A stretch of 63,237 bases of DNA, counting the filler, from Reclinomonas americana ATCC 50394 (lineage: Eukaryota): assembly GCA_048213135.1 (NCBI GenBank). It is 14 parts of 14 records of this genome, joined end to end, with 100 filler letters (N's around TTAATTAATTAA, not from the genome) between each part and the next. Parts side by side here need not be neighbours in the genome. Positions count along the whole stretch, not along the records: positions 33,037 to 41,420 come from AFZH01020403.1; positions 41,521 to 43,485 come from AFZH01020404.1; positions 43,586 to 47,458 come from AFZH01020405.1; 11 more parts are not named here. One strand, 5' to 3'. This document shows, one piece after another, positions 24,501 to 59,994 of the stretch (position 1 is the first letter of the stretch; the number at the start of each line of letters is the position of its first letter). The notes beneath the pieces were generated by a model. It had not been told where the DNA came from. It saw only the letters and a program-made list of their open reading frames with translations, and did no database searches. The position numbers and the translations under genes were made by a program.

Positions 24501-27500
24501 ACGCCTCTCGCACCTCATCAATGAGCGCCGAACTGGCGGTTGACTTGCGATCGACCTCCTGCCGAAGATCAGCCCGCAGCTGCTTGACAACACAGGGTGT
24601 CAATAAACAAAACAAACGAGACGACATGGACGATGGAGATGTTCACCGTCTCTGCCAGTTCCTGGGCTCCACGGCGCTCGAAGCGAAGCTGAAGCGCGCC
24701 CCACAACACATACAGACATCAGTACACGCAGGCAGACAGACATGCAAGAGATATCAACCTCCGACTACAGCGCACCGTTTCGATGGTTGTCTCACTGTCG
24801 CGCAGAGCAGTGCGAACAGCGGACAGTTGCTGCAGCAGGTCGTGGCGCTCTTCTTGCAGCTACAGTCATCACCCCGAAGGAGTGGTGAGGCAAAAATAGC
24901 AGAAAATGAAAAAATGCACACAATACGCATGACGAGACCTTTTCCACGTCATCTTGCGCGCTGTTGGCTCGAATGGTCTCACGATTCAACTCGGCTCGCA
25001 ACTGCGCGCGCATTAGCCTGGGATATGAACACATGGCAAGACATGCCAACGCAACTCTCTCCAGCAGCAGATCAGTGTCTCTTGTCGACGTGCGTGGCTG
25101 CAATCGATTGGTATCAGCGCGCTCTCTCACACGAGACACACAGACAGACGAGGAGCGCAACTTGCGGCGACGACGGAGCACTTGGTGCGGTTCGCCGGTA
25201 CTGCTCAGCATTACCTCGCCGCTGCGCACAACAATCAGCACATGGAAGAATTCACCGACTGTCATTCCCCGACCGCAACGCAACAGCCACGGCACTCTGG
25301 TGTGCATCGACGAGCTCTGCCAGCAGAGCATCCAGCATGTCGTCGGTGGTCGCCTCTCGGTTGCGCAAGACACCCAACTGCGCCATGCAATGCGTGAATT
25401 CCACACAGACAAATTGCTGGTGACACAAGTCGCACCCAACAACACACGTACCGCGCGTGTGAGGCGAGAGTGCGCGACCTGTACTTGAGCCAGCGAATGC
25501 TCGAGCTGCGACCCGAACAAGTGGTGAGCGACGCAAGTGGAATGCAGCACGGCGATCTACGGAAGAAAGCACCTCATCGGCGTACTGCTGCGTGTCGACC
25601 ATCTCCTGCCGCACCTGTTGCATCGCGCGTGAGACTGACGAACACCAACAACACTCGGTGATTTGCGTACCCTCGCATACATGGCGTCTTGTGCCTCTTG
25701 TGCTTCGGTGATAACCTGGCGCAGCACAGTGAGTCAAGCAGAACGGCCGATGGCATTTCACATAGGCAAGGTCGACGCACTTGTTCGTGATCACTCTGCA
25801 GCTGCGCCAGTTCTGCGTGTGGCGAGAGCCGACAGAGTTATTCACCACGCATTTGGGGACAAAGAAAGATACAATCAGTGACACACCAGCCTGCCACTTG
25901 CCGCGGTCGCTCTCATATGCCCGTTCCGTGGCTGTCAACTCTGCGTTTTTTTCGAGTATGTGTGAGGAGATCATGCTCGCAGTGTGCGACTGCTTCTCGT
26001 ACGCCACGCTCAACTCAATTCCATCTCCGTGAATCGACTGCGCATCCGCTGCGATTCCGACACTGATCGCTCCAGCAGGCTGCGTGCACTCTCCAGCTCG
26101 GTCACATGGAGTTCCGACTGCAACACAAAGAACAACGCACAGTCAGCACGACGATCGAGCATGATGAAGCACACACACACACAAACGTACCCGTTCAGCC
26201 GCGAGTTGTGCGGCGTTCAGATCGCGTTCCAGAGCGCGACACTTGTCTCGCAGTACCTTCAGCTCGGCATCTTGTTGATCGGTGATATTCTGCTCGCGCT
26301 CCAAACTCTGTGCACACCCACACACAGCAGTGGTGAGTACGACGACATCACATGCCAACTCTGACGATGCTGCAGTGTCGCACCTTTTCGAGCTCGGTTG
26401 CTCGCAGACCCAGCCGATCACGTTCCATGGCGACCTCGTCCACTCGACCGCCCAGAGTCTGCTCCAGTCGGAGGCGGGCATTCTCACGTTCCTCGGACAG
26501 GCGCACGGCTGCCACCAGTTCTCCGCGCAACTCCTCGCACTTGGCATCGGCAGCCTCCAACCGACTGTCGCTCTGCTCCGCACGCTCACGCAGCACTTGC
26601 ACCTTCTTGTCGGCGGCGGCCAATCCTACCATGAGGGCGTGATTCTCCTGCTCCAGCTGTTTCACCTTTGACAGCGCCTCGTCTCGCTCCTCGGTCACAC
26701 GGCGAAGTGACTCGCGTACCGACTGCAACTGCTGCGACGCATCAGCGGCAGCCGCCAAAGCCGCTTCGTCGCGAATCAGCTTTTCTGTGAGCGCGTCCAC
26801 CGTCTGCTGCAGCGTCGTCGTGCGCCGCGTGTCAATCTCGACGCGAGCGGCGGTCGACGTCAGACGCTCCGTTGTCGACTGCAGCGTGCTCTCCATCTCC
26901 GCACACCGCGCCTTCCATTCGTGCAACTCTGCGCGACGACCAGGCGAGTGAGCAAATAGAGAAGAAGCTTCGAATCAGAAATAGATAACAACAACGCACC
27001 CTTGGTCAGCGTCTCGACTTCTGACTTGAGCGACGTGGCCCGGCTGACTGCCTGCTCGCATCCGATCTGGGCCTCCGCCAGTTCGGACTTGAGTCGTCCG
27101 TGCTGTGTCTCCTTGCTCACCAGCTCCGCCACCACCTTGTTGTAGCGCTCTTCCAACTGATGCTGCGCCTGCTCAGCCGTCCGAGTGCGGTCCTCCAGCA
27201 GCGACACCTGAGCGCTGGCATTGGCCAACTCCGACTGCATGTGCGCAAAGTCGTTGCGCATCTGCGCCAGTGTGTTCCTCTCCTCCTCCAGCTCGTCTTC
27301 GTGCTCACGCAGTTGGATTTCCAGCGTTCGGCGCAGCGCAGACAGGTGCGTGCACTCCTCCTCCAGGGAGTCACGTGCCTTTTCTGCACTGAGCAGGCGA
27401 CCCTTTGTCGTGGCATGCTCCTCCTGGAGCACCCGCAAGGCCTCCTGCGACTGCTGCGTGGTCTGCTCCATGCCAGAGTACAAGCCACAGCGCTGAATGA

Positions 27501-29939
27501 GGCTGTTCAGCTCCTGCTCACACACACACGCCGCATCAGCAACAACCAGGTTGGGTGGGAAGCACGAGGACACTCACTTCGGACTGTTCCGCGTGCTGCG
27601 CTTGCAAGTCGGACAAGCGGCGGCGTATTGACGTCAGCTCATGCGTCAGTGCGCCACGCGCGGCCGAGGCCTCGTGCAGTGAACTCTTGCAACTGGCCAA
27701 CTCGACGCGAACGTTGCCGAGCTCTTCCTTCAGTTGCCGGTTGGCAGACTCCAGTTCGTTGCGATGCCGCACGTGATAGTCGTCCGCATTCTTGGCCTCC
27801 TGCGTCTGTGACTCGGCCACTCGCAGCTGCACCACCAACTCGTGGTTGCGTGACTCGAGCGATGAAATGGCGGCCGTCAGCTCCTGCACATCGCGCACCG
27901 TGAGAACCACGAAGAAACAAGTGTAATCGTGCACAGAAAAAAACAAACCTCCACTCGCTTCTCCACCACCTGCCGTTGCTCGACCGCTCGCTGCGCCTGC
28001 GCGCGATTACGCTCGCTCTCTTCTTGCAGCGGGCGCAATTCGGCAATCACCAGCTCCGCATCGGCGAGCGCCGCTCGTGCCGAGTCACTAGCCGCCGTCT
28101 GCTGGCGCAAGCGGTTCTTGCATTCGTGCAGAGCGGCTTCGCTGCTCTTCACTCGTACCTCGAGATCGACGACGCGGGCATCCTGCTCCTTGCAGCGCTG
28201 CTGCAGCTCGGCCACGTGGGTTTCGGACTCGGCGAGGCGTGCAGAGTGCACACTCAGCGATGAGGTCGCCTCGATTAGCTGCATTGACTTGCTGTTGATC
28301 TCGACCTGCGTGGGAGAGAGGCACGGAGATGAGTGGGAGAGAGGCGACACAGCGAAGCGACAGTCGGCACTCAACTCGCAGCCGTTCGACCTCCTGACGA
28401 CACGTAACGCGGTCGGCTTCAATCGCATCCACTCGCGAAGCCAGTCGTGCACGCTCGTCAGACAGCTGTGCACGCCGAGACAGACAGATTAAAAAACATG
28501 TGAGGCCTTGCGTGCTCTCCCCCCTCTGCTGGCTGGCTCACTGACGCACCTCCTTGATCGACACGGTGAGCGCGTCACGCTCACTCTGCACCTGTCGCAG
28601 CTGAACCGCCGACTCCTCCGCTTGCCGCTCGAGGCGCCTACGAGCCAGCTNNNNNNNNNNNNNNNNNNNNNNNNNNNNNNNNNNNNNNNNNNNNTTAATT
28701 AATTAANNNNNNNNNNNNNNNNNNNNNNNNNNNNNNNNNNNNNNNNNNNNCTCCAGGTGCGTCTTGAGGCGTTCCAAGTTGCGCACGACCGACTCGTGCT
28801 GCTGCTGCTGCTCCCGCATCTTGTCCTCGTGGTACGTGATCCAGTTGCGCTCCATGTCGTTGACCTGCACGACACGAGAAGGTCAGCAAATGACAATCTC
28901 GGAATGAGCGAGTGAGCGAGCAATGATGGCGCACAGTTTCGTCATGCGTGTGCTTCAGCACATCGCTCATGCGCGCAGCGGCGTCGTCCTTCTTGCGGAG
29001 CTCCTTGCGCAGCAGCTGATTCTCGTTCTCTTTGGCCTCCAATTGCGCCTGCAAGCTCGTCAGCCGCGCACGATGCTCCTCCAGCTCACTGTGCGTGGAC
29101 GCCGCCCGACGATCGGCATCGGCGGCCGACAGTGATATCGAGGCGTAGCGCCGTTCATACCGCTCCGCCACCGCGGCTTTCTCATTGGTCAGTGACTTGG
29201 CGCGCACACACACACAGAGAGAAACTTAGTTGAGTCGTGGCGTGGATCGTGCAGTGCGCGCACACACAACCAATAACACACCTCCACCTCTGCACGCAGT
29301 CTCAGATTGTCGTCGTGCATGGTACTCAGCGCGGCGACCTCCTCCCGCAACGACGAATTCTCTCTTCGCAGCACATCCATATCACCGGCCATCTCACGCG
29401 CCTTCTCCTGCGCATTCTCCAGCTCCCGTTGCACCGACGCCTTTTCACGTTCCAGCGACTGCACCACCTCTCGCATGGCGGTATCCGCACCTTGCGCCGT
29501 CACCTGCGCACGCAACAGCTGGAACCGCGATCGCTCCGAGCTCAACGCGCTCTTTGTCTCGCTCAGCTCGTGCACCAAGTACCGTCGCGTCATCTCCGAC
29601 TTGTCAAGCATCGATGCCAGCTCCTGCGTGGCCAGTCGCGAGGCAGCAACGCTCATCGGCGACGCCACTGTCGCCATCAGCGGCTTTTCATCCTCGACCG
29701 ACACATCGACGCCATGACGCGATGCCTTTCGATCGGGCGGCGATCGACTCAATCGCTCCTGCGCAGCCGGTGTGCGCGGGTGTCCCAGTGGAGAGTATCG
29801 CCCTGCAAAGAGAGACGCGTGTGAGTGCCAGTGAACGGAAAACAGACGCGCGCACGTGACAACCGACCGTCGGTGAGCGACGCGCCCGAGTACAGTGACG
29901 GAGTCCGCGCGCTGCTGGTGACACGAGACGAGGAGCCAT
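21528..29939 (-). CDS. Very long coiled-coil protein (possibly centrosome/basal-body or cytoskeletal), many exons, spans two gaps; ends approximate
   Basis: About 8 kb of minus-strand exons with heptad-rich E/R/L/A/Q sequence (e.g. LSALRRTLEIQLREHEDELEEERNTLAQMRNDF; VQSLEREKASVQRELENAQEKAREM). Confidence 0.75.
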
Positions 29940-31643: not shown

Positions 31644-31992
31644 CCGACGTTCACTGCTTGCCACGTACTACTTGCCGCAGGTCCAGTTCGTCTTCCGCGT
31701 CGTAAAGCTGCAGCGCGGGAAGTATCTGCTCGGCAAGCTGGCGAGCCTGATCGGCGCGACCGGCGGCCTTGAGTGCCGCGATGAGCTTGACCTGTTTGCG
31801 GAGAACTTCCTGTATGCCGACGTTCACTTCTTGCCACGTACGAGGTCGCTTACTTGCCGCAGATCCAGTTCGTCTTCCGCGTCGTAAAGCTGCAGCGCGG
31901 GAAGTATCTGCTCGGCAAGCTGGCGAGCCTGATCGGTGCGACCGGCGGCCTTGAGTGCCGCAAGTAGCTTGACCTGTTCGCGGAGAACTTCC
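31644..31992 (-). repeat. Tandem duplication (~170 bp x2) of the last coding segment of the SMYD gene
   Basis: 31644-31810 and 31818-31992 are near-identical (shared ccagttcgtcttccgcgtcgtaaagctgcagcgcgggaagtatctgctcggcaagctggcgagcctgatcgg); one 9-nt indel and a few substitutions. Confidence 0.95.
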
Positions 31993-34456
31993 GTGTCGAT
32001 GGCGTGGTAGCCGAGGTCGAGGAGAGTGCGTATGGAGCGGTGGAGGAGCTCGGCCACGCGAAGCCAGGCCGGGGGGGAGTCGGCGGTGGCGTTGTGCAGG
32101 CGTGCCAGCTCGTTGAGGCAGTGTGCCAGGCGTGGACTGCGTGGGGCGAGCGCGCGGTCGAGCAGGTCGAGGCATTTGGTGAGGAGCACGATGCGCTGGG
32201 AGTCGGAGGAGGAGGAGGAGGTGGCACGCTGTTGTCATGGCGAGGGTCAGCCGGTGACGTACAAGGGGGGCGGGGAAGGAGAATTCTACGACGCACGTTC
32301 CAGCAGTCGTGCGCGGTAAAAAGGCGCGACTCAATGTCGGCCAGCAGCGTGACGGCTCCACACCGCGCACATACCAGGTGGTCCTCGATGGCTGCAGCGC
32401 ACGAGTAGAAATAATGAGGCCTCATAGGCGATCGCACAAAAGGAGGGGAAAAAGAGCACGCAACGTGAAGTGACCATGATCTCATCCATGCCGCGCCCCA
32501 GTGACGCGCTGCACGCGGGGCACTTGACCTGGTTGACATCGGACGGACTGCGCAACGGTGAGGAGACGCACACAACCTGCGCGGAATGTGCAGGAACACA
32601 TACCGACTGCATGCGTCGCACTCGCAACGAAAGAGATACTGGGACGCCAGCTGTGCGCGTCGCGTCTCACTGCGTTTCTCCTTGCACACATGCGGTCCGT
32701 AGGTGATCAGCACCTCGTCACCGGCTTGCATACTCGGCGCAGTGCCGACCACGGTGAGGTAGCGCGAGCGCTCGAACTGCACTCGTGCGTTCGGGAGGCA
32801 GGAATGGTTGATGCGCGAGGCCGATGCGTACAAGGCCTTTAATATCACGCGTCAGCAAACGGAAAAGGAGGAGGAGAAGGAGCGGGAGAAGGAGAGGGAG
32901 GAGGAGGAGGAAGAGGAGGAGGAGAAGAGAAGAGAGNNNNNNNNNNNNNNNNNNNNNNNNNNNNNNNNNNNNNNNNNNNNTTAATTAATTAANNNNNNNN
33001 NNNNNNNNNNNNNNNNNNNNNNNNNNNNNNNNNNNNGAGGAAGAGGAAGAGGAAGAGGAAGAGGAAGAGGAAGAGGAAGAGGGAGAGGGAGAGAAAGAGG
33101 AAGAGAAAGAGGAGAAGGTGAAGGGGAAGAAGGAGAAGAAGAAGAAGAGAAAGCAGACGAGGAAGAAGGAGAAGGAGGATAAGGAGGAGAACAAGAAGAA
33201 GAAGAAGACGAAGGAGAGGGAGAATAAGAAGGAGAAGAAGAAGAAGAAGCATGTGGGGAGACCCGCGCGCAACTATTCCGCGAAGCACATGGCCATACTC
33301 GTCGGTCTCCACATCGACCTGGTAACCGCTCACCGAGAACGCGTTGAAGCGCAGAGCGCAGAGCGCGCAAAACACCAGCTGCTCAAAGGCCGAGTCGCCA
33401 GAAAACTCGGCTGTCACCGCCGCCGCCTGCGCCTCCATATCGCGGCGCTCGTCGGCCGGCAGGCGCTCCACATTCAGCAGCAGCTGTCGAATCTGCTGCA
33501 CGCGAGGTGATCCGTCTGCGCGTGGCGCAAGAGTGTGTGTCAGGTGAGGAGAGCACACATGCAGTGGCCTCGGTGTGCCAGACCTCCGATGCAGGCCACC
33601 ACTGCCGCATACACCAGCTGCGGAGTCGAGGACAGCACAAAGTCGGCGCGATCAAAGACGCGCGCCAGTGCCTCCAACTCTCCGCGTGCCCGGCTCTCTT
33701 CGAGACACCTGCTTTGCCGTCGTGAGGATCCCCGTGTCCACACACAAAAGAGAGAGAGAGACACGCAACTCTTCACAACAGTACTGCAACGGCGCCGAGC
33801 AACCGGGCAGTGGCACGCCGGCCTTCACATCGCGCAAGCAAAACGCGCAGAACCAGTGCCAAGTGCCCTCCGCCGTCGACACCACCGCCAGCAGCGCGTC
33901 CTCGCGCGACAGCAGCACTCTACTTCCAGTCGCCTCGTCGTACCCCACTGTCGCCACGCACATTTGCTCACCGGGTCGTCGCGCCTCATCGCTGACCACC
34001 TCTGTCCGCGATCGCGAAATGAGAAGAATGAGCTTCTGCGATATGGATATGCAAAGGGGCCTGCTCACCAATCGCTGTGTCACATGTAGGTCTCCATTGC
34101 GGTGGTGGCGTCCACACCGTTGAGCAACTCAGCAGCATCTCGGTCGCTGACAGCAAATCATCGAGAATGATCATTCTCGTGTTCGCTTTTTTCCGACGAT
34201 TGCAATCATGATATATGCACACACCTTTTTGCTTTCTATACAGCGCCTTTGCGTGATTGGCTTGCAGCGCCAGTGCTGCCTCGGCGTCTCGGAGCGCTTC
34301 TTGGGCGTCGCCGAGACTGAGCGAGCACTGGGCGCGATTAGCGAGGAGTGTTACGCGGACATCGTGTGAGGAGGCAGTGTGGAGAGCGGCGGTGTAGAGA
34401 CGACGTGCGCGGGCGTAGTGGTGCTCGCGGAAGGCGGTGTTGCCGGCGGCGTGCAT
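31824..34456 (-). CDS. TPR-MYND-SET lysine methyltransferase (SMYD4-like), spans one gap; start approximate
   Basis: TPR GNTAFREHHYARARRLYTAAL...LLANRAQCSL; MYND-like FCAFCL...PGCSAPLQYCC; SET RGI|ALYASASRINHSCLPN, GDEVLITYGP; post-SET YLFRCECDAC. Confidence 0.88.
32861..33250. repeat. Polypurine (GAG/GAA)n low-complexity tract inside a SMYD intron, interrupted by a gap
   Basis: gaggaa/gaagaa repeats on both sides of the gap. Confidence 0.85.
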
Positions 34457-34747
34457 ATCTGACAACAATGTGGCAGCTTTGTTTCCCGCGCTGACTGCGA
34501 GCAGGACGACACTGGTGCTCTTTCTTGTTTGCGCATGCGTCGAGTGGTGTGGTTGCTACCACAGGCAATGTATTGCTTGGAGATGTTTGTCGGTTGATGT
34601 ACGTGTGCGGCCTTGTCTTTTCCTGCCAATTAGGTTGGTGTCGTCGCTTGTCGCGTGTGACGGGATTCAATCCGGCACTCACCGACTGCTGACAACAACA
34701 GGCCGTGTTGTTCGAGGCAGCGACGAGGAGGCAAGCAGGTGTGGGCC

Positions 34748-37700
34748 ATGGACGGTGATGGAGTTGAAGACAACTGGGTGAGTATCGCAGCACGGTGTAT
34801 GGTTCTGTGCACACGTTCTCGCACGCGCGTACATTGATTGCACTCATCAGCGCCGACACTGCTCACGATGTGCGTAGGCGATTGATAGCGACGGTGCTGC
34901 TGTTGGTCGCGGCGCAGATGAGCAGGTGCCTGTGCACCGTGCGGAACAACCCGTGGTGAGCGTCGATGTGTCGTCGACTGTCGTGGTTATCCGTTCTCTG
35001 ACGTCTATTCAGGTGGTAGTGGCACAGTTGAATGTGTGTCAAGAAGAGGTGCCAGTGCACGAAGACCCAGTTGCAGAGCTGATGCTGGTGGATGGCGGCG
35101 GCCATCCCGGAGGAGGTGGTGACGGTGGAGGTGGCAGTGGTGCTGCACAACTAGGCGCTGATCATGACGGCGACGCGGAGATGGCACAGGCACATTCGAC
35201 AGTACACGGATCAGGCCTGATGCTGGTGGATCGTAGCGGGCTCCCTGGAGGTGGCGGTGACGGCGGGAGCGGCAGTGGCAGTGGTGACGGTCAATCAGTT
35301 GCAATTGTTGCTTCAACTGAGAAGTGTTACCTGCCTATCGGTAGAGTCGGACCTCCCGAAATTCTGCTCGGCCATCGCAGCCCTGGAGGCGGGTACAAAG
35401 TCAGTATGGTGCGTGCAAGTGACCCACAGACGAGTTGCAGTCTTGGTCTGATGAGGCGTGTATTTCTCTTTTCAACAGGTCCGCAGTGACAGAATTCAAG
35501 ATGGCGAGTGCAATCAGCTTCTCGCTGGCGCAAAATGGAACACGGGCGCCGTATTTCCAGGCAGTGGTGAAATTGGTTTCCGCCTATGCCAACGTCATCT
35601 GGAGGAGAGAGCACACTCGGCGGTCAAAGCTGACAGCTACATGGAAGCGCATCAGCATGGCCAACTCTTGAGGCGCAACTTCCTGCTGGCGATCGACTTT
35701 CAGGGCATGACGGGCCCTGTATTGCCAACAAGCCTGCAGTTCGAGCTGCGAGTGACGCCTGCAGATCGAGAGGATCTCCGAGCCCGGATTCACGAGGCGC
35801 ATGTTTATCTTGAGCCTGCGGCCAACTGCATTGATGCAGCCAAGTTGGCGAGAGCGCATGCGCGCCTGCGCTGCTTTGCGATCACAGCTTTTGTCGGCAG
35901 ATTCCGCACGACTGTGGAAGTCGCCGTTGAACAACTGGAGGTGTGTGGCACTGTGTTATTCTGAGTCTGCCTTTGTCAGTAACTGAATATATATTAATAT
36001 GACCGTGTGCGCGCGTGCATTAGGCCGTCAGGAACTATAAGGGTTGCGATCCAATGTGTCAGCTTCGCTTTGATCTCGTCGTGTACTTTGGCGATCAGCC
36101 GCCTCAGGAGGATGAAGACGTGTACTTGTACACGCTGCAGTGTGCGCTGCCGGTTGTGTTGCGGAACAGGGCTGCTGAGGGGCCGTCACCTTGTTGTGCC
36201 AGTCACATCACGTGGATGGGCCATCAAAACGCTTCGGGGTTCAATACGACACTGTGGCACGCGATCGAGCGCGCTAACCACGTGTCGGTACATGATGGTA
36301 TCCTTCAACGGGCCGTCCGCGCTCGTGGAATAGGTCTCTAACACTCCTACTGACTTCTGACATTCTATTTTGCTAACATTGTGGTGTGCGAGCAGAGTTC
36401 ATCCCACATAAAGAAGTGGAGTATTGGGAGAAGAATCAAGACGGAGCTGTACCACCCCTGAGTGTCAGCTTCAACTGTGTCGGTGCCACTGTCGACATGA
36501 TGGCTTCCATTCAGGCCATCGGTGTGCTGTTTGCGCACAGTTCTGCGATGGCACATCGCGAGGTGCGTGCATGTTTGCACTCTGGTCCAGCATCTGCAAA
36601 GACTTGCACCTTAAATTAATATTGTGTTGCAGATTTCTCGTTTGTGCAAAGTAGTTGGCGGGCAAGTGCTCGTGGATTATGACGTGAAAACAATTTCCGT
36701 GAAGGTTGATCTCGAGTTTGTGAGCGACCAGAGGAACGGTGCATTGCTGTTCGTCGTTGTCGCGGAAGGAGATGGCTGCTACGTGTATGACAAGCCCATG
36801 CACGTGATACGAGAGAAGCCACCCAAGCACACGGTAGTCGGTATGCGAGCGAGTGGAGAGAAGCCGGATGATCCACCGCCACCGAGTTCACCACGTGACG
36901 GAGGTGCTGCTCAAGTTGGCGAGCCCTCAGGTTGGCCGTCGTCGGGTTCTATCTGCCACACAAGCTCACCTGTCCCGTATTGCACGCAGGTTCGAGTGAG
37001 CGTCCGCCGGTGTCGCAGAGACCTTACTTTAAGCTGCCAGCGGAATCTGCCTCTCAAATGACTAAAATGTCATTCACGGAAGGTGCCGTGGCAGGTTCGG
37101 CAACCACACTTTCCGGTTATGCGCTATCAGCAATCTGTTTGACAGCACATGACTTCGTGCACAGGCATGAAATGTGATTTGCAACAGCTGGAAGCATCGA
37201 CCAATCACCCTGTGCTCAGCGTCCTTTTTACTCATGCCGTAAACGCTGATGTGGAAGGTCTCCAAAAATTTCTTCGCGATCCGTATTACGGATCTTGGTA
37301 CCAGTCGTTGCGTGTCCGACCACCACCAATCTGTGCGCGTATCGGTATTCACTTGTCGCGTTGCCGTTGCAGGGTGCTTGTGGATCCTTCGTTCAATAAC
37401 TCGGAAGTTGCTCCGCTGCAAGTGTATGCACATTGCTGGGTCGAAGGATTCTATGCTGCGCTCGGCTGTGCCACGGAGCTCACCTCGGTAGTGATCGAGT
37501 TGCTGCATGACGAAGACGGCAACAACCTGCTTGTTACTCTGGTCAGCAATTCAACTGTTTTGCACCGATGTTCCAGCGCGATGGGTGTGGCCTTCATGGA
37601 ATTGTTCAAGAAGGCAAGTCCCTCGTCTTAATGTCACTACTGGTGCAGCTTTCGTTACTGATCGCCTGCATGGCAGTGTGGCTCTCGGCGCTTGTTGGAC

Positions 37701-40585
37701 CACAAAAACGTGAATGGCATCACCATGCTGCATCAAGTGGCCGCCAGAGCGTCGATGGAGACTGCGCTCCAGATGCTAGTCGCACTTCGGATGCAATCAC
37801 GCCCGAGGGAGCTAACAGCTGACGAGTGTTGCGCGGCTGCGACAGAGGCTCTCGCTCACGAGAACTACGGGACTGCCGCTGCGTTCGTGCTGACTGCACA
37901 CGAGGGCTCCGACTTTGCACTCGGCAGCCGCGATGTCGTTGAGATTTTGTGCCAGCACACGCAGGTACGCAAGCAATCTGTGGATGCAATTTCGCGCAAC
38001 TCTCATTCTCCGTTGCTGCCACAGCTGCGACTTCAGGAGTCAAAGGACCGATTTGTTACTCTTGTGTTCGAAGAGAGGCTGGCAGAGTGTCGATCAATTA
38101 TTGACGAGCTGTTGCAAGGTTTGTTACTTGTTACTTCGTGAGTAATCACAGCCCGCACGAGTAACGACCATATTCGCAGAGCTGGTCGACGGAAAATTCA
38201 ACCCACGTTCGTTGGCTGAGACGGCTGTGGATGCCACGCTCCTGCTCCCACAGTCCGTCATTTTCGCCAGAATGGCCACTGAGTTGTCGGTGGACGACAT
38301 TCGACAATTGCTTGTCGGCCGAGACGAGTCCTCCAGCACCGTCGCTGAGGCCCCGAACGCTGGGTCTGAGGCGTCGCCCTTGCCCACCACGGAGACCGGC
38401 ATGCATTCGGTGTGTGGTATCGCCTCGACGATGACTTATCCGATAATCGAGTGCTGACAACTCGTGTGTGTGATTTCAGTCACGACAGTCGGCAACTGAC
38501 TTGTCCAGCTCTGCTTGTGATGAGGGATCATGCATTCATCACGATCAAGCTCCACACCACACTGACGGGACAGATACGGACGCAGAGGATGACTCAAGCG
38601 ACGATCCACTTGCGCCAGAGTCAACAAGCCTGAAGATTGGACAGCCTATTCAAGTGGTAGCCGGTGCGGGAAGCGCAATGACAGATATGGTCATTCCAGA
38701 GGGTGCCACAGTGGATGGTATGTACATTTGACTGAGCCTTTCGCAAAACACTGCAGTGTGCTGATCTTGCGAGTACAGAAATCGGACGTGCGATCGATCG
38801 GCTTCGGAAGGACTTGGAACGTCTAGTCGTGGAGGCATCAGTAGCATGTAAAGTTGACGGTTGGTAACTAGAGCATGTCCCTTCGGGCATCAATCGCGAA
38901 TACCTCTTGCCAACCGAAATGTGTATTCACAGACAGCAAACAAGAACATGCGAATGTGCAATTTCTAGCGCGTACTCAAGCTGATTGGGAGCACTTGGCG
39001 GTCCAGACGGAGAGCTCGCCTGTAGCGCGATCGCGCACGGAGCACCACATCAATGCGCTAAAGCTTGTTTGCGGACAAGCGGCGCTCGTTATTCTGTACG
39101 GCGACTCGTCTCAGCTTATGCAGGTGTGTTATGTGCTCCATGTTACATTTGCATATTTCCTTGCTGACACGTGACTTGCACTTGAGCAGATTGCGAGGAC
39201 CATGATGTCCATTGCAGATACAAGCGTCAAGCTCGAAGTGCCTTCTATGGTGGATTCGCATGCAGCATTCTCCAACCCTGAAGGCAAGACGGATACGGAC
39301 GCTGTGCAAGAGTTCCTGTACTCGTTGCGAGTTTATCGACTGACGGAGACGGAGCGCCTGTTTGAGCATTTGCGCGACTGCGAATTGTTGGAAACGGAGC
39401 TGCGTGATCAGGAAGCCGCCTTCATGCGCAAGCTGCAGGGTTTCAAGGCCGCCATTGAGTCACGATCAATTGACTTGCGCGTTGCGTTGAGACGCTACGA
39501 GCACCTGGATGTCCGTTCGAAGAACACTAAGCGAGTGCGCGAAACCCAAGTGCTACTCAAATCGGCTGCTGTTGCTCAGTCCAACCTGGAGCAGGTTCTA
39601 ATGGGACTGGAGTTCTGCCGTCTCACTCCGCTGGCAGCGATCTTCCAACACTGGAACCGTAACGACCGCGAGCCACGCAACCGGCTGGTTACCGAGTGTG
39701 CGAACGATGTTCTGGAGCATCTGCGCAAGTCTCTCGAGCTGACTAACATTGTGCGTACGTGTGCACCTGCACGTCGTACTCGTTGTTGGCGTGCTCACTC
39801 GCCCAGCACATTCCCCAGCTCTCTTCTGAAGAGTGGAAGCATGCGACGCAGCAGTGGTGGACTCGTGCATCGGAGCTTCGGTGTCTCTTCGAACGTACCC
39901 GGGAGACACTTAACACACGCTTTGCACTGGATTTGATGACAGACTCAATGCCACAGCTTGCGACGGTTTGTGTTCATCAGTTTTCTTGCATTCCATCAGT
40001 CGTTTTGACCACTATGTGTGTCTTGCGCGTGCGTAGTTTGCGGAGGAACGTTGCGTCTCTTGGCAACTGTGTGCGTGTGCGTTGTTGTCTGCATGCTAAC
40101 CTGATTGAGCTGTCAGTTGGCATTGACGTCAGCTACAAATCGACAACGTCGTCCACGTCGACGACATCGATTAGTTCCATTGATGATGACGAGGCGGAAG
40201 ACGTCAGGGCTCGTGCTAAGTCACCAGTACCTGTACCAGTGTCGCGGGGTGCTACTGCTCATGCGCATGCAGATGTTTTTGTAAAATAAATTGCGATCAA
40301 AAATTTGTGTTGAACATCACCGCTGCGCACACATACCGCTTCATCGCTCTGCGATTTGCGACAGCCAGTTTTCAGCGCCAGCTGATGAATCTCCAACATG
40401 GGCGCGCTGCGGAAATACGGTGTGTCCCGGTAGAAGTGGACCCTCAGACCACCGGTGGTGTACCGCTGCGTGACGATGATTTCGAATTTGAATTCCGGGC
40501 AAATCTACTCGGCCGCGCAGCGGTGTGTTGCGGGCGAAGAAAAACAGTTGACCCTCGGCGTCGGCAGTTGGGTCTGTTCAGATAA
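34748..40585 (+). CDS. Large unknown multi-exon protein, paralog A (beta-rich domains, ankyrin-like repeats, helical C-terminus); end approximate
   Basis: Exon chain from MDGDGVEDNW|; ankyrin-like DEDGNNLLVTLV and DHKNVNGITMLHQVA; collinear similarity to the gene at 41004-46711. Confidence 0.7.
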
Positions 40586-41003
40586 GCGCGGGCTGTGCCG
40601 CGGTACCGCCACACGCTGGGCCGGCCGCGGGGAGCTGGCCGTGTATACAGTATACGCGTATTAATATTCGTATATATATATATATATACGCGTAACTACT
40701 GTAGATCGCGATATATATCCAAGGTAAGTGCTGCTGCATGCACACTGCTGAATTAGAATCAATCGAGACATCCCGTCTGCTCTCTTCCTTATACAACACT
40801 GAGGCCAGATGGACGAAATACAGTATGTAAAAACTTGAAACCCGGCATGACTGGTCAGAAGTTGCGGTGTCGTCGTGTTCTTCGCACGCCTGTCGTCGCA
40901 TTCGTGGCGATAACCACCTTCACTCCTCTCTCGCGCGCCGTCGTTGTGCGATCGCAGAAGTCGTCTTCATCCCTCCCATTCACCGACAACGTCTTCCCCC
41001 GCC

Positions 41004-41235
41004 ATGTCTTTCCACGACGGCGACTTTGACGGAGAGGATGTGCCGCTGCCTCCACCGTTCGACAGTCACACGGTCCTCTTTGAGCAGTTCGAGCTCGAGG
41101 AACACGGCGGCGAGGGCAGTGGCACCGTCGGCGCCGTTGCTGGCGACAGTGAGAGCAGCAGCATGAGCTCCGGTGACCACTATAGCATGTTCGGGAGCAC
41201 AATGCCTGAGGAGGTGATGTGTGTGCGTGCGTGTG

Positions 41236-41285
<50 letters not shown>

Positions 41286-44200
41286 GAGACGAAGAAGAGA
41301 GAGAGAGTAGAGTAGTCTCACACACGACGAGACGAACTACACACGTACCACCAATCGTCTACTTCCGACAACGCAGTAGGACGTGGACGAAGGTAGGACG
41401 GTACCACCACGCCTACCGAANNNNNNNNNNNNNNNNNNNNNNNNNNNNNNNNNNNNNNNNNNNNTTAATTAATTAANNNNNNNNNNNNNNNNNNNNNNNN
41501 NNNNNNNNNNNNNNNNNNNNACCCCGTACCGTACCGGTCCGTCTACTCCTACGTCGCGTCCGTCCTACGTCTCTCGTTTCGTTCGTTCGTCGTCGTCGTC
41601 CTCTCTCTCTCTCTCCTCTCCTCCCTCCCTCCCTCCCTCCTCTCTCTCTCTCTCTCCTCCCCCCCTCCCTTCTCTCTCTCTCCTTCCCCCCCCCCCTCCC
41701 TCCCTTTCTCCCTCCCTTTTTCCCTCCCCCTTCTCCCTCTTCCTCTGCTGACTGTTTCGGGATGCCGCAGAAGAGCCACCACAACTGGTATCCTCGGAGC
41801 TCACGATGAGCAGCCAGCGTCGTACCACCGCGGGAGCACTGCCCGCCTCTTCCAATGTCACCGACCATGCAGACGGCGGTCCCTACCACGTGGCACATCG
41901 TCCGGTTCGTTGGCGATGATCTGGCACACGCACGCAGCATCTCACTGTGCTGCAGATTGGCTTTGGTGGGGATGTGCAAGTCGTGTGCGGCGCCAAGTGG
42001 AGCTTGCACCCACTCCGCATCGACGACTTTGTGCTGCTGAAGATTGCGGACGTTCGCGAGATGGATTGCGTGATGGATCCGCGGCCGCCCATCGTCGGTC
42101 ACTTGCTGGGTTCCCAGTTTGTGTGGTCGTTGCATTTCTGTGGCCTGGCCGACAATGGCGGCTTCTTGAAAACAACGCACTTCGAGGTCTCCACGTGGCG
42201 ACAGCAGCGGTGTCGCATTGAGAGTGCAGAAGCAAGCTTGAACAGCGGGAATCCGAACCGCGACGCTTGTTTCGAGTTCCGTTGCATCGTGCATGCAGAC
42301 GAGACTCGCACCGGATTCGCACTGGAGGCCCGGCAGGTTTGCTCTTTTTTTGATGAGTCAAGCGAATGGGGCTGTGTTGTCCTAAGTCGTGTTGCACAGG
42401 TCAACACATCTCCGCCAGCTCCGCATGTGGGCGAACACAGAATCGAGAGGCTACGCATGCAGCTTATCGTGGTGGTCGTCGATCCGAACGGCGACGCGCA
42501 TCGTCTCCACTTGGAGTGCTTCATTCCGTTGGTTCTTCGCAACAAGGGCGCCCAGGTGCCCAAGGTCGCCTCTCATATCTCGTGGGTCCTCTTCCATGTC
42601 GCTCCTGGGCTCGCACCGATTGACCGTCGTCAACTCTGTCTTCATGCCCAACATGATACTACTCGTTTCGTGAAGCATACCTTGCATGTCACCATGCATG
42701 CTTGTGTGCTGACACTCGTCACCGCTGGCACGCAGGATTCTTTCCTCAACAGCCCGAAGTGACGCTACGCATGGGGCAGGATGACGTGATTACACACGTA
42801 CGATTCCCGTATGGATGGAACTTTGCTGAGCCGGCAAACGAGATTGGCTTCCTGATTTCGACCAATACGGTCGTCGCCCACGCTGTGGTAAGCGCGAAAT
42901 ATGTAATGTTATAAGTCGTCTGGTGCTGACTTCATCGTGCCAGGTGCCTGACATTGTGCAAGTGGTCGGCGGCGCGTTGGACGGCGCCCAGCCTCCTCCC
43001 CGACTCTACGAATTCCTTGCCGTGCGCTTGCGAGGTCTGCGAGCGGGACGCAAAGTTTTCCTCTTTCCTGCGTTCTCCCGACCGGACGGTCGGATCGACA
43101 TCTACCACGAATCGTTCGAAGTGATTGTGGTCAGGACGCGCGGTATGCTTGCTCGTTGCACTCACTCTTCATGTCCCCTGAATCAGCCTTTAGTGACACA
43201 TGCTTGTGGGTTGATAGGAGAGAAACGCGCATGCTCCTCAGCCGATGACCAGGGCGCTGATGGTGGTGGCCGCGCGCGCGATCGTGATGACGAGGACGGT
43301 GTGTATTCGTGCCAAGCCCGTGCTTTCTTTCCTAGTTGGGCCACTCACAACTGTATGTTGGCTGCTCTCAGCACCACGGGCAAGGAGGCGGAACGTTCCC
43401 ACTGCTGGTTCGGCAGCGGGCAAAAGCAAGAGTCGTTTCGTCCGTGTCTGCTTTGCTGCACCGTCACCCGGCAGTCTCCCACTGANNNNNNNNNNNNNNN
43501 NNNNNNNNNNNNNNNNNNNNNNNNNNNNNTTAATTAATTAANNNNNNNNNNNNNNNNNNNNNNNNNNNNNNNNNNNNNNNNNNNNCCGTTTTGTTTCAGA
43601 GCAATCAAAGACGGCAGCTGCCAGTGGGGGTGGCGGCAGCAGTGGCGGTGCAACAGAGGAACAAGGCAGTCGAGAAATCAGCGACGCAGCACATCAGCAC
43701 GTGTATGAGACAGCAATGGCCTTGCTGTTCAAGGCATGTCGTTTCATCTAATCGCAGGTGGTTGCTTTGTTGCTGATTGCCGTCGCACAGTGTGCCATTG
43801 AGGATATGCCAGAGTATGTTGAGCAATACATGCGCTTCCCCAACAAGACTGTGGCGAACCAAGAGTTGCGCCGGCACTGTGTGTATCTAATCTTGCACAA
43901 CCACTGACCTCGTGTTCTCCTCCGCACAGGTGGCTGTTGGACCAGGACTTTGGCTACTCGCACGTCGCTCCTCTGCAGGCCTTTGCCGTGGCCAGCGCCA
44001 AGTCGCTAGCCGTTGCTCTCAATGGCGCCACGGACCTCACCGGGGATGAAGTGGCCGCGTTGCGTGACGAGAACAACAACAATATCCTCGGCACCTATGT
44101 CGAATCGCTGCAAGAACCCGACTGGGCCAGTTATTTCGGCGACGGTCCATCGTCGCCAGGAGTGGACTCGGAAAACAGCTACACACCACCCGCAAAGACA

Positions 44201-46711
44201 TTGGATGCTGAGGCACTGACGGCGCTCTTCCGCAAGGTTTATTCCTTTTTCTCCGTGATGCGATTTATCAAGTCACTGACTTGTCCATGCTCACACTCTC
44301 TCTTCCTTTCGTCAACCTCAGTGCTCTGCTTCCGAGCTCCTTGCCCACCGCAACGACGACCGGCAGACGGCACTGGAGCTGCTGGCTGCGTGTGGCTCGC
44401 CGACCGATGTTCGCATCTTGCTCGACGCACTGGAGGCAACAGCAACGGCTGACGCTGTCAATCCAAGTGTCCACAAAGAGGCGGCCGTGGAAGCACTTGC
44501 GCATTGCAACTGTGCTGTGGCGGCCATGTTCCTCCTTGAGAGCTGTAGCGTGGGGTTGCAGCCAGCCGCCATCAGCACCGTGGAGGTTTGTGGAAATGCA
44601 CTTGTACCTTAATGGGATTCGCGTGTGCGATTGACCTTGTTGTCATGTGGCTCGTTGCAGTCCTGGCTGAGTGAACGCCGCGTGTGGGAGCAACTTGACG
44701 GGCTCGTGTTGCAAGAGAGGATGGAGAAGTGCCGCGACATTGTGCAAGACTTCCGGACCAGTGCGTGTCCCTTTGCAGTCGTCGTGTCGCTTATCGCTCT
44801 CCTCATGGTTGCGATACGAATGCAGGAGGTTTTACTTTTACGGCACCAGCGGAGCCTCCTGTCTTTGAACGGCGTCATGTACACATTAAGTTTGCCGGTG
44901 TTTGCCTCGACCGCATCACTCTTCGGAGTGATTTGTGGGGCGTCACTGGCAAGTCTCTGGAACTGGAAGAGTTGCTGGACAGGCAGGGTTTGTACTCGCG
45001 CTCTCTTCCACAACTCTCGCTTTCGCTTCGTTGACGACAATTTCTGTATTGCCTTGTGCAGAGGCGCTGCCGCAGCAGGTGGAGACAGTTGTTGAAGCCG
45101 CTACTGCGGTACACGCGGCCGAGTCAGCGCCCGTGGTGTTCAAGAAGAAGCACCTCGATCTGTTCGTCAACCACCGTGGAGTGCAGGTGCGCTTCAGATT
45201 ACGTCACCACGCTGCCACCACCTTGCTCAGCTGACGCTTTACTGCCGTACAGGAAATTCTCGAGTCCACTGACGAGAGTGACAAGGGTTCGTCGTTTGTC
45301 AACGTTACGCAATGATGTTTTCCCTGGTGTGTTCACTGTTCCCCTTGTGCAGCTGTCGCCGTGCGACTGGAAAAACTTGATCGCATTTGCAAGGTATTCT
45401 TGGAGGAGACGATTACATGCCTTGGAAACAACACGGGTGCGACTGCTGTGCATTCCTCCAGTCGACACACAGTTATCGCTCACCGATGCGTCTGTCCATT
45501 GTGCAGCAACTGCGGCGGGCCCCGTTGCCGACTACGAGACAGTGGCGGAGCAAAACATCCACCAACTCGGAGCCAAGCTTGTCGTTCTCACAGATATGTT
45601 GGCCGCAGCCGAGGCTCGCGACGATCCCAAATTCGTTGCCGGCCAAAGAGCTGTAGATGCCGCGTGCAGTCTGCTGGAGTATGTGAAGGACAAGATGCCG
45701 CCGGCGCAGAAATACAAGTCGAAAGAGGCCCGTCCACGTTGCAGTCTACAGTTTCACGGTCTGTGCGAAGTTGTTGACAAGGCATTGCGTCAAGTGGTCG
45801 ACTGGGTGCGTGCAGCTTGTCACCATATCGAGTGCGCACACTTGCCTCACATCCTTTCGTCTGCCGCGCACAGACCGGCCACTATCTGGACGAATTGGCC
45901 AGTCTGTGGACGAAGCAGCGCATTGTGATTGGCGACCAGCACTCGGCGGACAACAAGCGCCAATTCAACCTCTCAATTGACTTGCTTACGCAGTCAATCA
46001 AGCTTCAACGTCAAGTGCCGACCGCTTTTGATCCGGAATGGGAGAAGCGCATGTTGGCCAGCGTTGCGAGCTGCACCGAGACCAATGAGGAGTTTTTGTT
46101 GCTGGCTGCACAACTGAAGCAGCTCGGCAGGAAGGTGGTGGCTGATCGACGGTTGCTGCGTGGCAAGGACGACGACTCGGCGCGCTTGCGGTACGAAGCA
46201 CAGCGCACTGTCGACGGCATCAATAAGCAAATGCGCGCACTTCGGCGACAGATTCACAATCTGCGGGTCGTCGCACTTGCGCTTCGCGAATTCAAGGATC
46301 ATTACGCCTGTGCGTTTGATGGACTGCAGCATGCATTCACCTCCTGGGTGGACGACGAGTTGTGCAGTAGTGCAGCACGTTGTGGTCGGCAGCAGTTGCT
46401 CACTCGATGTGTTGAGGCTGCCTGTGAGCCAGTGCAGCAGGCGATTGACGATGTTGCGTGCCGACAACAACACACAATGATGCTCGTCGTTGCTGACATG
46501 TATGCGTGTGCGTCTGCAGGATCCGAGTCGTCAACTAGCGGTCGACACACTTCGAGAATGGGAGTCCCGTCTGCGCGGCTTGCATGAGCTCATTGCCACG
46601 GCCGCCGATGGCCCAGACCGAGATGAGTTGCAACAAGTGGTTGACAATCAACTCGTTCCATTGCGTGCCTCGATTGATTGCGATGTCAGCTGCACAGCGG
46701 GTGCGCCGTGA
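41004..46711 (+). CDS. Large unknown multi-exon protein, paralog B, spans two gaps; end approximate
   Basis: Starts MSFHDGDFDGED; ankyrin-like DENNNNILGTYV and HRNDDRQTALELLA; collinear similarity to the gene at 34748-40585. Confidence 0.7.
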
Positions 46712-53393: not shown

Positions 53394-55433
53394 NNNNNNN
53401 NNNNNNNNNNNNNNNNNNNNNNNNNNNNNNNNNNNNNTTAATTAATTAANNNNNNNNNNNNNNNNNNNNNNNNNNNNNNNNNNNNNNNNNNNNGGTAGTC
53501 TGTTGTGTCTTTTTCGTCTCTGTGATATTTGTTGTGCGTGCATCTTCAGTCGTGCGTGTAAGTGCCTCAGGAGAGCGAATCACCGATGATTGTTTCATTG
53601 TGTCTTGTTTTGCACACCACCTGGGCGCCACTACTCTGCTTCCCATTGTGCGCATATATGCACGCCGCGGACATTTTCATCCCAGCTCTGCAGGATGCAT
53701 GTAATTCCGTTCCTCCCTTTCTGTCCCTTGTTGAATCTCTCTCTTTCTCTCTCTTTCTCTGCCGTCTTCCTCCTTTGTGCGCTCACCATCTTCCCCAGTC
53801 GTCCGCCTCTCCTTCCCGCACAAGCTCGAGGCCGAGCATGCATGCTGGTCTGCTCAAGATGCGCCGACTTCCATTCTGCCTTCTGCGAGTCCATGATGGT
53901 GAGCATTCCGATACCGAAGTGGCATGACTGCATGCTGACTCTGCTCTCTCTCTCTCTCGTAGGGTGGATGTGTGTGCAGAAACGTCCCTCGGCTTGCCTG
54001 ATGCGCAAACGCGTGTTGGTATCAGATGCTCATCGGTGTGTTCGTCAGCGAGACAAGAGCTCCTCTTCTTCCATTCCTTTGCTCACAGCACACCGACATG
54101 CAGATACCTTGGAGGCACGTGCTTGCCGTCGGCCGTGACGATGAACGGCTGTGCATCGCCCATTGCCGACTGTCACCTCACTCACTCGGCTCTCCACTCG
54201 CATCCCACCGTGAACTCAGCATGTGTGTGGCCTTGTTCGTCTTGATCTCTCTTTCCTCCTTCCCTTCCACTCACCTCATTCATGCAGGTCGTGCATGCTA
54301 TGGAGGGCGTGGCTGGCTATGGGTGTACGTATGCATGCCGTGCTGTGCGATGGATGGCCTGGTCGGTGGATCGTTTTCAATCCCGGATGGTAAGTCGGAG
54401 CGAATCGATGATGTGCGCACCTTGGCTGCTGCTGTCACTGTCGAGCGACGATGGTGGTGACTGCAGGCACGTGCGAGGCCAGCAACTCATGGTGGGCGCG
54501 TATTCTACTCCTGCGTTGAGGAACAAGTTGACGAGACTTGGAGATTGACTGACTCCGCCTGTGTGTCATCTGAACACAGGCGTGCTGGCAAGTCGAAGAC
54601 ACGTGGTTCCATGCTTCGCAGTACACGCATGAGACGATTCCCTACCGACTGCAAGTAAGATTGAAGGCACGAGGCATTGATTGTGATTTGGGTGAGAGGA
54701 CGACACAGCTTCCTCTTCCATCGCTGAGTGGCTGTGCTGGTTGGTCCTCTTTTATTCCTTGTGACTCTCCTTCTTCATTGTCTCACCGCAATCTCGCTGT
54801 GGGCCGATCCAAGGAGGTGTGAGGTTTCGAAGACTCGGTGCTCCTTGAATTCTCAGGTGTGCTTTGCTATGGTATCAGCACAACTGCGCCACAGCTGTGC
54901 ATCCAAGCAGCCCGGCATTCCAGTCCTTGTTGAGAATGCAGGCCAGTCGGAATGAAGTGTCGCTGGATAGCAGCACGGTGCAGTGGAGCTTCACCTCGTG
55001 TCACCACCACCTTGCATGTCTTCTGCCGATTTCGCGCGCGTCGACAAGTCCCATGTCAGTCTTCGAACCCCCACACGCATCATCGGAGCCAGATTGCTCA
55101 CACTACTGCATACTGTGTGGGGTGCGGCGAGGGATGAGGGACGTCTCGGAGCAGGGCGGAAGAAGAATGGCGGGGAACGGTGACAATCGAGCGAGCAAAT
55201 CACACACATAACACACGCAGCGATACGAGAACAGACTCTTCGTGAACAGTAGAGTACCGACCAGGTGGCTTGCTCTTCGAAGAAAAGAAGTTAGCAGAAG
55301 CGAACCAACAAGAGAGGACACAAGAGTCATCTTATCCTTCCAGTTCTCCAATGACAACCAAGGTGCGCTCAGATGCACACGCGAGGGATGCTTGCGTGTG
55401 GCTACTGCTTTCTGAGTGTGTCTCATTGTGAAT

Positions 55434-56495
55434 ATGTCGGTGCAGGTCTTGCGGGGCCACACAGGGACGGTACGATGTGTCGCTATCACGCCGAATGGTC
55501 AGCGCATCGTGAGTGGGAATAGAGACAGCACAGTGCGTGTGTGGTCACTGGCGAGTGGCGAAGAAGTGCAACGGTTGGAGGGACACACTGAACGGGTAAT
55601 GTCTGTCGCCGTCACTGCCGACGGCCAGCGCATTGTGAGTGGCAGTAGAGACAACACGTTACGAGTGTGGTCTCTGGCACGTGGCGACGAAGTACGGCGG
55701 TTAGAGGGGCACACTGGATGGATTTACTCTGTCGTTGTCACTCCCGATGATCAACACATCATAAGCGGGAGTTCGGACCAGACAGTGCGAGTGTGGTCAC
55801 TGGCGAGTGTCGAAGAAGAACGGCAGCTGACGTTGGCAAGACGTGCCGGCGTAGTGTGGTCCCTTGCTGTCACTCCCGATGGTCAACACATTGTGAGCGG
55901 GGGCGAGGACAGAACAGTGCGGGTGTGGTCACTGGCGAGTGGAGAGGAAGTGCGGCGACTGGATGGACACATTGGAACTGTGTGGTCCGTCGCCGTCTCG
56001 CCTGATGGCCTGCATATCGTGAGCGGAAGCGGGGATAAGACAGTGCGGGTGTGGACCCTCGCGAATGGAGACGGAGTGTGGCGGATGCAGGGGCACAGTG
56101 GTGCAGTGCTGTCTGTCGCCGTCACTCCCGATGGTCAGCACGTCGTGAGTGGAAGTGCCGACAAGACGGTGCGTGTGTGGTCTTTCGCGCATGGAGAAGA
56201 AGTGCGACGGTTGGAGGGGCACATTAACTGGGTCCTCGCTGTCGTCGTTACTCCTGATGGCCAGCACATCGTGAGTGGCAGTCGGGACGAGACGATCCGT
56301 GTGTGGTCCACGCCGCGTGGGCTGGCGAGGCAAGAGCTTGCAGCCGCGCAATCAGCCGTGCTGGCCGTCAACGAGCTGCTTGCTGAAGAAGATGACTGTA
56401 ACTGGATCCTGGTCGATGTCGCGCTGCGCTGTTTTGTGTTGGAGGATGCAGAGGCGATTGAACGCCGTGCGCCTGAATGGTGCTGGACGGAGTGA
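55434..56495 (+). CDS. Intronless seven-repeat WD40 protein with a short helical C-terminal tail
   Basis: Seven highly similar ~42-aa repeats with consensus LEGH...V.SVAVTPDGQHIVSGS.D.TVRVWSLA.GEEVRR in a single uninterrupted ORF. Confidence 0.93.
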   Translation: MSVQVLRGHTGTVRCVAITPNGQRIVSGNRDSTVRVWSLASGEEVQRLEGHTERVMSVAVTADGQRIVSGSRDNTLRVWSLARGDEVRRLEGHTGWIYSVVVTPDDQHIISGSSDQTVRVWSLASVEEERQLTLARRAGVVWSLAVTPDGQHIVSGGEDRTVRVWSLASGEEVRRLDGHIGTVWSVAVSPDGLHIVSGSGDKTVRVWTLANGDGVWRMQGHSGAVLSVAVTPDGQHVVSGSADKTVRVWSFAHGEEVRRLEGHINWVLAVVVTPDGQHIVSGSRDETIRVWSTPRGLARQELAAAQSAVLAVNELLAEEDDCNWILVDVALRCFVLEDAEAIERRAPEWCWTE

Positions 56496-59554: not shown

Positions 59555-59994
59555 CAAATAGAAGTAGAAGACGTAGTAGTAAGTAGNNNNNNNNNNNNNN
59601 NNNNNNNNNNNNNNNNNNNNNNNNNNNNNNTTAATTAATTAANNNNNNNNNNNNNNNNNNNNNNNNNNNNNNNNNNNNNNNNNNNNTTGTCCTTTGTTGT
59701 CCCAGCTGACGTCGTCAGAGCGCGCACACCGACGACGGATCGCACACACAATATGCTCCGACTTTTGTGCCCCGCGCGATTGCTTGCAAAGCGTCGAATG
59801 TTGCGGCGCACGCCATATTATGCCTTGTTCTGTGTGTGTCTTGTGACAACGACAAAATCTCGCATTGGTCGACTGCTGCACTCGTCGTTTGCGGTGGCGC
59901 TCTTTCTTGTCTATATAGATCATTCACTCTTTGTGTGAGCAACGAACTGTCTCTGCGTGGCATGTGTGTGTGCGTGTGTGTCTCATGTGTGCGC

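Follow-up and report, generated by a model that had tools for sequence, protein, structure and literature searches.

Two large genes, which we call A and B, are placed side by side on one strand of a 63,237-nt stretch of the Reclinomonas americana ATCC 50394 assembly GCA_048213135.1 (the whole of this stretch is referred to below as the window). They raise the question of whether they descend from one gene and what kind of protein they encode. A reading made from the sequence alone had described them as an old tandem pair with collinear domains and shared intron positions and had recognised no described family. Our analysis has shown that A and B are genuine paralogues of long standing and members of a small orphan family; their shared part is laid out in a known way, while its parts belong to no recognised family.

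Genes A and B are old paralogues

BLASTP comparison of the refined proteins aligned A248-871 with B48-670 at 24.5% identity over 677 columns (E 2e-25). The Smith-Waterman score of the whole proteins was 277, and 200 shuffles reached 64 at most, so that the alignment is significant against shuffled sequence, and both shared modules exceeded their own shuffles (the N-module with 111 vs. a maximum of 56, the ankyrin module with 200 vs. a maximum of 55; 200 shuffles each). The motif pairs listed in the sequence-only reading are present and collinear. Collinearity extends over about 60% of each protein (~620 residues), whereas the C-terminal ~40% is unalignable: A876-1418 and B675-1164 score 46, a value matched by 38 of 200 shuffles.

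Nine introns of A fall within the aligned span, and for seven of them B has one of identical phase no more than two residues away, which bears out the shared intron positions; an eighth has such a counterpart within five residues, and the ninth, situated in the linker, has none. By a rough estimate, the chance of at least six coincidences of this kind is below 1e-8. At the DNA level BLASTN found no similarity between A and B at E<1e-3, in agreement with the lack of an obvious repeat noted earlier.

Two genes are not all there is of this family, as the genome contains six loci representing three gene types. Two further A-like genes were found on contigs C30 and C28 (75% in exon 3), and a short gene, C, is present in two copies (C27 and C30) with about 40% to the first domain exon of B. 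Gene A and its C30 copy are 67% identical with a dN/dS ratio of 0.28 (0.11-0.38 in the domains; 0.23 in domain 1, which is 73% identical), and 16 of the 16 introns compared are in matching phase. This purifying selection supports the old paralogy and the long retention proposed before. Between the C copies the dN/dS ratio is 0.08. C and the N-module of B share 121 of 358 aligned residues, and each of the five internal introns of C has the phase of its counterpart in B and is aligned with it to the same column or nearly so. C stops after two basic patches, RPRKR (at the same exon start as RARRR of B) and KRRRRRK, and genome searches found no ankyrin-module match beside it. Kilobase stretches with ~89% DNA identity, non-coding sequence included, link C27 with C30 (L004/L006) and C28 with C30 (L013/L014). 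Each of these pairs, the A-like copies and the C copies, may represent two haplotypes or strains; for A and B themselves no second copy of this ~89% kind turned up.

Gene A lies entirely on one contig, C4936, and the conserved exons of B are on contigs C4937 and C4938, across gaps from it; therefore the adjacency of A and B depends on the scaffold. The two genes are indeed side by side there, but calling them a tandem rests on scaffolding across the first gap in Table 1.

Homologue, Pfam and profile searches gave no match to a described family, as had been supposed. None of 539 candidates among longer proteins was homologous to A exon 3, the domain 1 profile had no match at E<=0.001 among 1.84 billion representative proteins, the A tail profile found no homologue among 8000 scored, and ESM Atlas yielded no usable match for B domain 1. 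There were no family matches in 17 viral contigs and nothing at E<=0.001 in a viral fold library. Literature searches returned no description of such a family, and the whole words STAT, SH2, CudA and NF-kappaB are all lacking in PMC11589745. In a metagenome scan one of 47 pattern matches passed (14 residues, in DNA bacterial by eye), and this match was attributed to chance. Within the genome, a match on C6 (E 0.059, with an internal stop) was dismissed, family motifs not being seen on reading; a weak match lies on C375 (E 1.36); and the C-terminal B exon 45874-46452 matches only itself in the assembly.

Predicted domains and their possible role

Low-confidence models suggest that the part shared by A and B consists of two tandem immunoglobulin (Ig)-like beta-sandwiches followed by degenerate ankyrin repeats. 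The sequence-only reading had been right about old paralogy, introns and retention, but had not seen the Ig-like domains and ankyrin-like repeats. All four PDB matches of the A9 profile at E<=10 are ankyrin proteins (best E 0.058), which is weak but consistent evidence for C-terminal ankyrin repeats as in Rel/NF-kB proteins; the profile of the exon preceding the ankyrin exon had one unrelated PDB match, a trehalose synthase regulator (E 0.098), which was taken as chance. The same holds for other PDB profile matches (SipA, E 0.65; PDC-109, E 1.3; VirB7; Fis) and for designed beta-trefoils, matched three times by one 11-residue piece. No transmembrane anchor was found in A or B, the maximal 19-residue hydropathy being 1.65 and 1.68, respectively, in neither case near the C-terminus; the hydropathy of the N-terminal region of A (maximal 19-residue value 1.65) likewise revealed no signal peptide or membrane segment. 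The first 70 amino acids of A contain 12 D+E vs. three K+R. The long tails of A and B have no death-domain match.

The strongest conservation in the family falls just past the last strand of domain 1, with 17 invariant columns in six copies. By eye, the PxVLRN motif found there resembles the S459-Q463 loop of STAT1 (as given in Table 1 of PMC10298571): 21 ungapped positions contain seven identities to STAT1 in C and six in B. The family Gln is in register with STAT1 Q463 in B and C, whose invariant Asn lies one position away from N460; N460 and Q463 set the specificity of STAT1 (PMC5737217, PMC1550284), and the STAT3 motif is confirmed by PMC13162942 and bioRxiv 2026.10.24.761574. A second STAT1 block has four of eight identities in B and two of eight in C, the spacing being 137 vs. 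135. The binomial tails per register (1.5e-4, 1.2e-3 and 7.5e-4) are uncorrected and follow a post hoc choice made by eye. We consider the STAT resemblance a lead, not a result.

Membership in Rel/NF-kB, STAT, Mga2/Spt23 or CAMTA fails in each case on at least one tested feature. None of 26 exon-level queries matched the Rel domain PF00554 at E<=1, and the only PF00554 match in the genome scan (E 0.37, below the cut-off) is at another locus. No Arg/Tyr/Cys/Glu run corresponding to the Arg-rich recognition loop of Rel, near the start of its DNA-binding domain, is visible by eye in the alignment. The exons scanned contain no SH2 match, and the N-termini preceding domain 1 are acidic and of low complexity, not coiled coil; both SH2 matches of the genome are on contig C36 (one at C36:201206, L042). 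Genome scans with STAT_bind and STATa_Ig found nothing, but the controls were likewise silent, and hence absence is not implied. The exons scanned likewise gave no Pfam match at E<=1 for the CG-1 domain and IQ motifs of CAMTA, and a C-terminal transmembrane anchor of the Mga2/Spt23 type is missing from A and B.

The best explanation, which we hold tentatively and with a little less than even confidence, is that A, B and C are soluble transcription factors of the Ig-fold (p53-like/STAT-type) kind, which make up a small lineage-specific family with a built-in ankyrin restraint in a protist that is probably not an opisthokont. In this view domain 1 would contact DNA with the invariant loop that follows its last strand, and domain 2 would mediate dimerisation. 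In A and B, the ankyrin part would fold back and mask the basic patch, and the masked protein, or a C partner, would be kept in the cytoplasm until the ankyrin part is released or removed. C would then be an unrestrained, Rel-like form, and the unrelated tails could subject A and B to different inputs. Several results weigh against this explanation. The domain 1 model is poor (predicted local distance difference test score 44.5) and has no Foldseek match at E 0.001; eight of its 41 Foldseek rows are adaptin/COP ear domains, which are placed higher, and after re-alignment no p53-like factor is among the top 50. For domain 2 the best matches are V-set Ig domains, and neither an IPT nor a p53-like factor is among the rows shown; a 19-residue intron read-through in the domain 2 model may be the source of the extra V-set-like strands. 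Domain 1 has no marked excess of basic residues (K+R 20-22, D+E 18-24), and no STAT, Rel or IPT match at E<=10 was obtained in PDB (HMMER) or in Pfam scans. The STAT likeness was seen by eye and picked after looking; A lacks the loop Gln and has a two-residue insertion, and C has only its two identities in the second block. Finally, A contains neither a basic patch (no five-residue span with four basic residues) nor a glycine-rich stretch after domain 2.

In the fold searches of domain 1, adaptin ear domains fit at least as well as STAT-type ones, and it is plausible, if not what we would expect, that these proteins are cytoplasmic adaptors or scaffolds, in which two Ig-like domains (ear/appendage-like or like those of the ciliary CFAP65/HYDIN), ankyrins and helical tails bind proteins and not DNA. 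Such adaptors would agree with the fold rankings as well as or better than transcription factors, but all domain 1 fold scores are within the range of common arrangements, and the two basic patches ending C, the one in B and the acidic N-termini would be left unexplained, as would the concentration of the strongest conservation in a polar loop past the last strand of domain 1. An adaptor function would make this an ordinary orphan family of modest interest. The weak Foldseek rows of domain 1 include NFAT and TonEBP, B shows the full order of beta-sandwich, Ig domain, basic patch, glycine-rich stretch and ankyrins, and forms with and without ankyrin coexist, all of which could be expected of true, very divergent Rel/NF-kB homologues that push the origin of that family beyond opisthokonts. 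We regard such homology as very improbable given that PF00554 matched none of the exons tested and nowhere in the genome exceeded the cut-off, that the recognition-loop motif is not apparent by eye, that sequence likeness points to STAT instead, and that Rel regions were restricted to opisthokonts among the 180 species of the survey PMC8763368. The least probable reading is that the models fuse unrelated genes or that B has decayed, the layout being partly an artefact of hand splicing across gaps. The models were built from DNA alone and two gaps touch B, whose C-terminal exon has no second copy and thus provides no dN/dS for B; C, moreover, shows that the N-module is able to stand alone. However, A is on one contig with its compared introns all conserved in the C30 copy, and the frame of B stays open through 18 exons and follows that of A in collinear order both before and after the gap inside B.

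Gene models and other genes in the window

The window is eukaryotic in character, with 58% GC, short introns and 14 gaps. The models of A and B (Table 1) were hand-built from splice signals and refined against other assembly copies; their basis is splice signals and cross-copy conservation, the genes being known from DNA alone. Each can be read as an open, spliced frame whose introns are of the GT/GC-AG type and 56-100 nt long, except for one of 165 nt across a gap. Three of the 35 modelled A and B introns start with GTTGCG after a non-G exon end (window 40050, 43865 and 46453), and two more start with GTTTCG (42665 and 43435). GC-AG introns begin at 37614 in A, where the C30 copy likewise has GC, and at 43734 in B. 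For the putative first exon of B no family link was found by similarity (its score was equalled by 564 of 1000 shuffles).

Table 1. Genes A and B, their predicted parts and the adjoining gaps, in window positions
Feature	Position	Strand	Remarks
Gene A	34748..40289	+	19 modelled coding exons, 1418 amino acids (aa); open frame, canonical splice sites
A exons 1-7	34748-34777, 34878-35408, 35479-35940, 36024-36297, 36396-36562, 36633-36930, 36990-37094
A exons 8-13	37165-37297, 37373-37613, 37677-37964, 38025-38118, 38180-38409, 38480-38717		GC donor at 37373-37613
A exons 14-19	38779-38859, 38933-39123, 39190-39750, 39819-39965, 40037-40049, 40117-40289
A N-terminal region	34748..35408	+	aa 1-187; acidic, glycine-rich, low-complexity
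A domain 1	35515..36213	+	aa 200-405; beta-sandwich via homology to B
A domain 2	36396..36819	+	aa 433-551; Ig-like via homology to paralogue C, whose domain was modelled
A degenerate ankyrin-like repeats and following helices	37197..38118	+	aa 634-874; Pfam Ank_3, E 0.17
A private C-terminal part	38180..40289	+	acidic spacer, probably helical region, Ser/Thr tail; unalignable to B
Putative B first exon	41004..41213	+	acidic (D+E 16, K+R 0 in 70 aa); on A's contig
Gap between A's contig and conserved B exons	41421..41520	.
Additional putative B exon	41771-41889
Gene B	41956..46711	+	18 modelled exons after gap, 1164 aa, open frame; at least 18 exons and at least 1164 aa
B exons 1-6 after gap	41956-42336, 42400-42664, 42736-42887, 42944-43142, 43218-43298, 43372-43434
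B exons 7-12	43600-43733, 43791-43864, 43930-44236, 44322-44585, 44661-44760, 44826-44987		GC donor at 43600-43733
B exons 13-18	45062-45186, 45253-45286, 45353-45436, 45507-45805, 45874-46452, 46520-46711
B domain 1	41974..42585	+	predicted beta-sandwich, about nine strands; candidate DNA-binding domain
Family motif PxVLRN...P..ASHIxW	42526..42585	+	end of last strand of B domain 1
B domain 2	42736..43142	+	Ig-like
B basic patch RARRR	43377..43391	+	resembles a nuclear localisation signal (NLS)
Gap within modelled B intron	43486..43585	.
B glycine-rich stretch	43608..43685	+	between basic patch and ankyrin part; 7 Gly in 20
B degenerate ankyrin-like repeats and following helices	43710..44760	+	Pfam Ank_5, E 0.022
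B private C-terminal part	44826..46711	+	probably helical

Every one of the 14 gaps consists of two 44-N runs separated by 12 bases. The spacer was a TTAA repeat in all three gaps read, two of which had low-quality flanks. Nominal gap sizes are unreliable.

A frame bearing tetratricopeptide repeats (TPR) at 33989-34555 (-) faces gene A in head-to-head orientation, ~200 bases away from the A start codon. Elsewhere in the window we found an AAA ATPase exon (2051-2839, +), an O-GlcNAc transferase-like gene with TPR repeats followed by a glycosyltransferase 41 match (11481-14760, +), a long coiled-coil frame (26863-27573, -), a SET domain (31853-32851, -), a WD40 propeller with very similar repeats (55416-56492, +) and a weak peptide deformylase match (59710-60723, +). 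In the assembly, contig C2 (L036; >1.7 Mb, 47% GC) carries a full-length HSP70-family match and is probably bacterial DNA. One cytosolic-type HSP70 on another contig is 76-81% identical to plant/green-algal proteins vs. 73-74% to three animal proteins, with a best match of 87.5% among 8000 candidates scored.

Comparison with known systems

The layout starts with an acidic N-terminus and two tandem beta-sandwich domains; a basic patch is present in B and C, a glycine-rich stretch only in B, and ankyrin-like repeats in A and B. In NF-kB p105/p100 the order is two Ig-fold domains, basic patch, glycine stretch and ankyrins (PMC8763368, PMC13042239), and Rel regions under ankyrin restraint have been reported from opisthokonts only (PMC8763368). 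B has this domain order complete, and the ankyrin-less paralogue C exists beside ankyrin-bearing forms; unlike p105/p100, the family has no detectable Rel homology, its ankyrins are degenerate and its tails long and unrelated, A is devoid of basic patch and glycine stretch, and the acidic region of A and B is N-terminal. This NF-kB-like arrangement hints at a transcription factor that restrains itself, without being proof of one.

Mga2/Spt23 also combine an unstructured N-terminus, a beta-rich domain, an Ig-like domain and ankyrin repeats, and the p53-like DNA-binding domain of Mga2 was recognised only from structure (bioRxiv 10.64898/2026.08.31.748402); the A/B family differs from them in having no membrane anchor, no sequence match and long soluble tails. 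Adaptin ear (GAE)/COP appendage and V-set Ig domains show 5-17% identity, and the family lacks a secretion signal. With the STAT1 DNA-binding domain, in the portion compared by eye, the family appears to share a beta-sandwich ending in an Asn/Gln loop followed by P-x5-I-x-W, and the block spacing; unlike animal STAT, it has no SH2 or preceding coiled coil, and a second Ig domain and ankyrins stand in place of the linker-SH2 part.

Taken together, these likenesses would amount to a STAT-type DNA-binding domain without SH2 that is combined with an Ig domain for dimerisation, an NLS, a glycine-rich stop and built-in ankyrin inhibitors, with precursor-like (A, B) and Rel-like (C) forms in a deep-branching non-opisthokont, a combination that we think rather unlikely as a whole. 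If it is true, NF-kB-style control was either assembled independently or inherited from before the opisthokont split, which would be relevant to the question of an ancestral or convergent origin of this control logic and to the kinship of Ig-fold DNA-binding domains.

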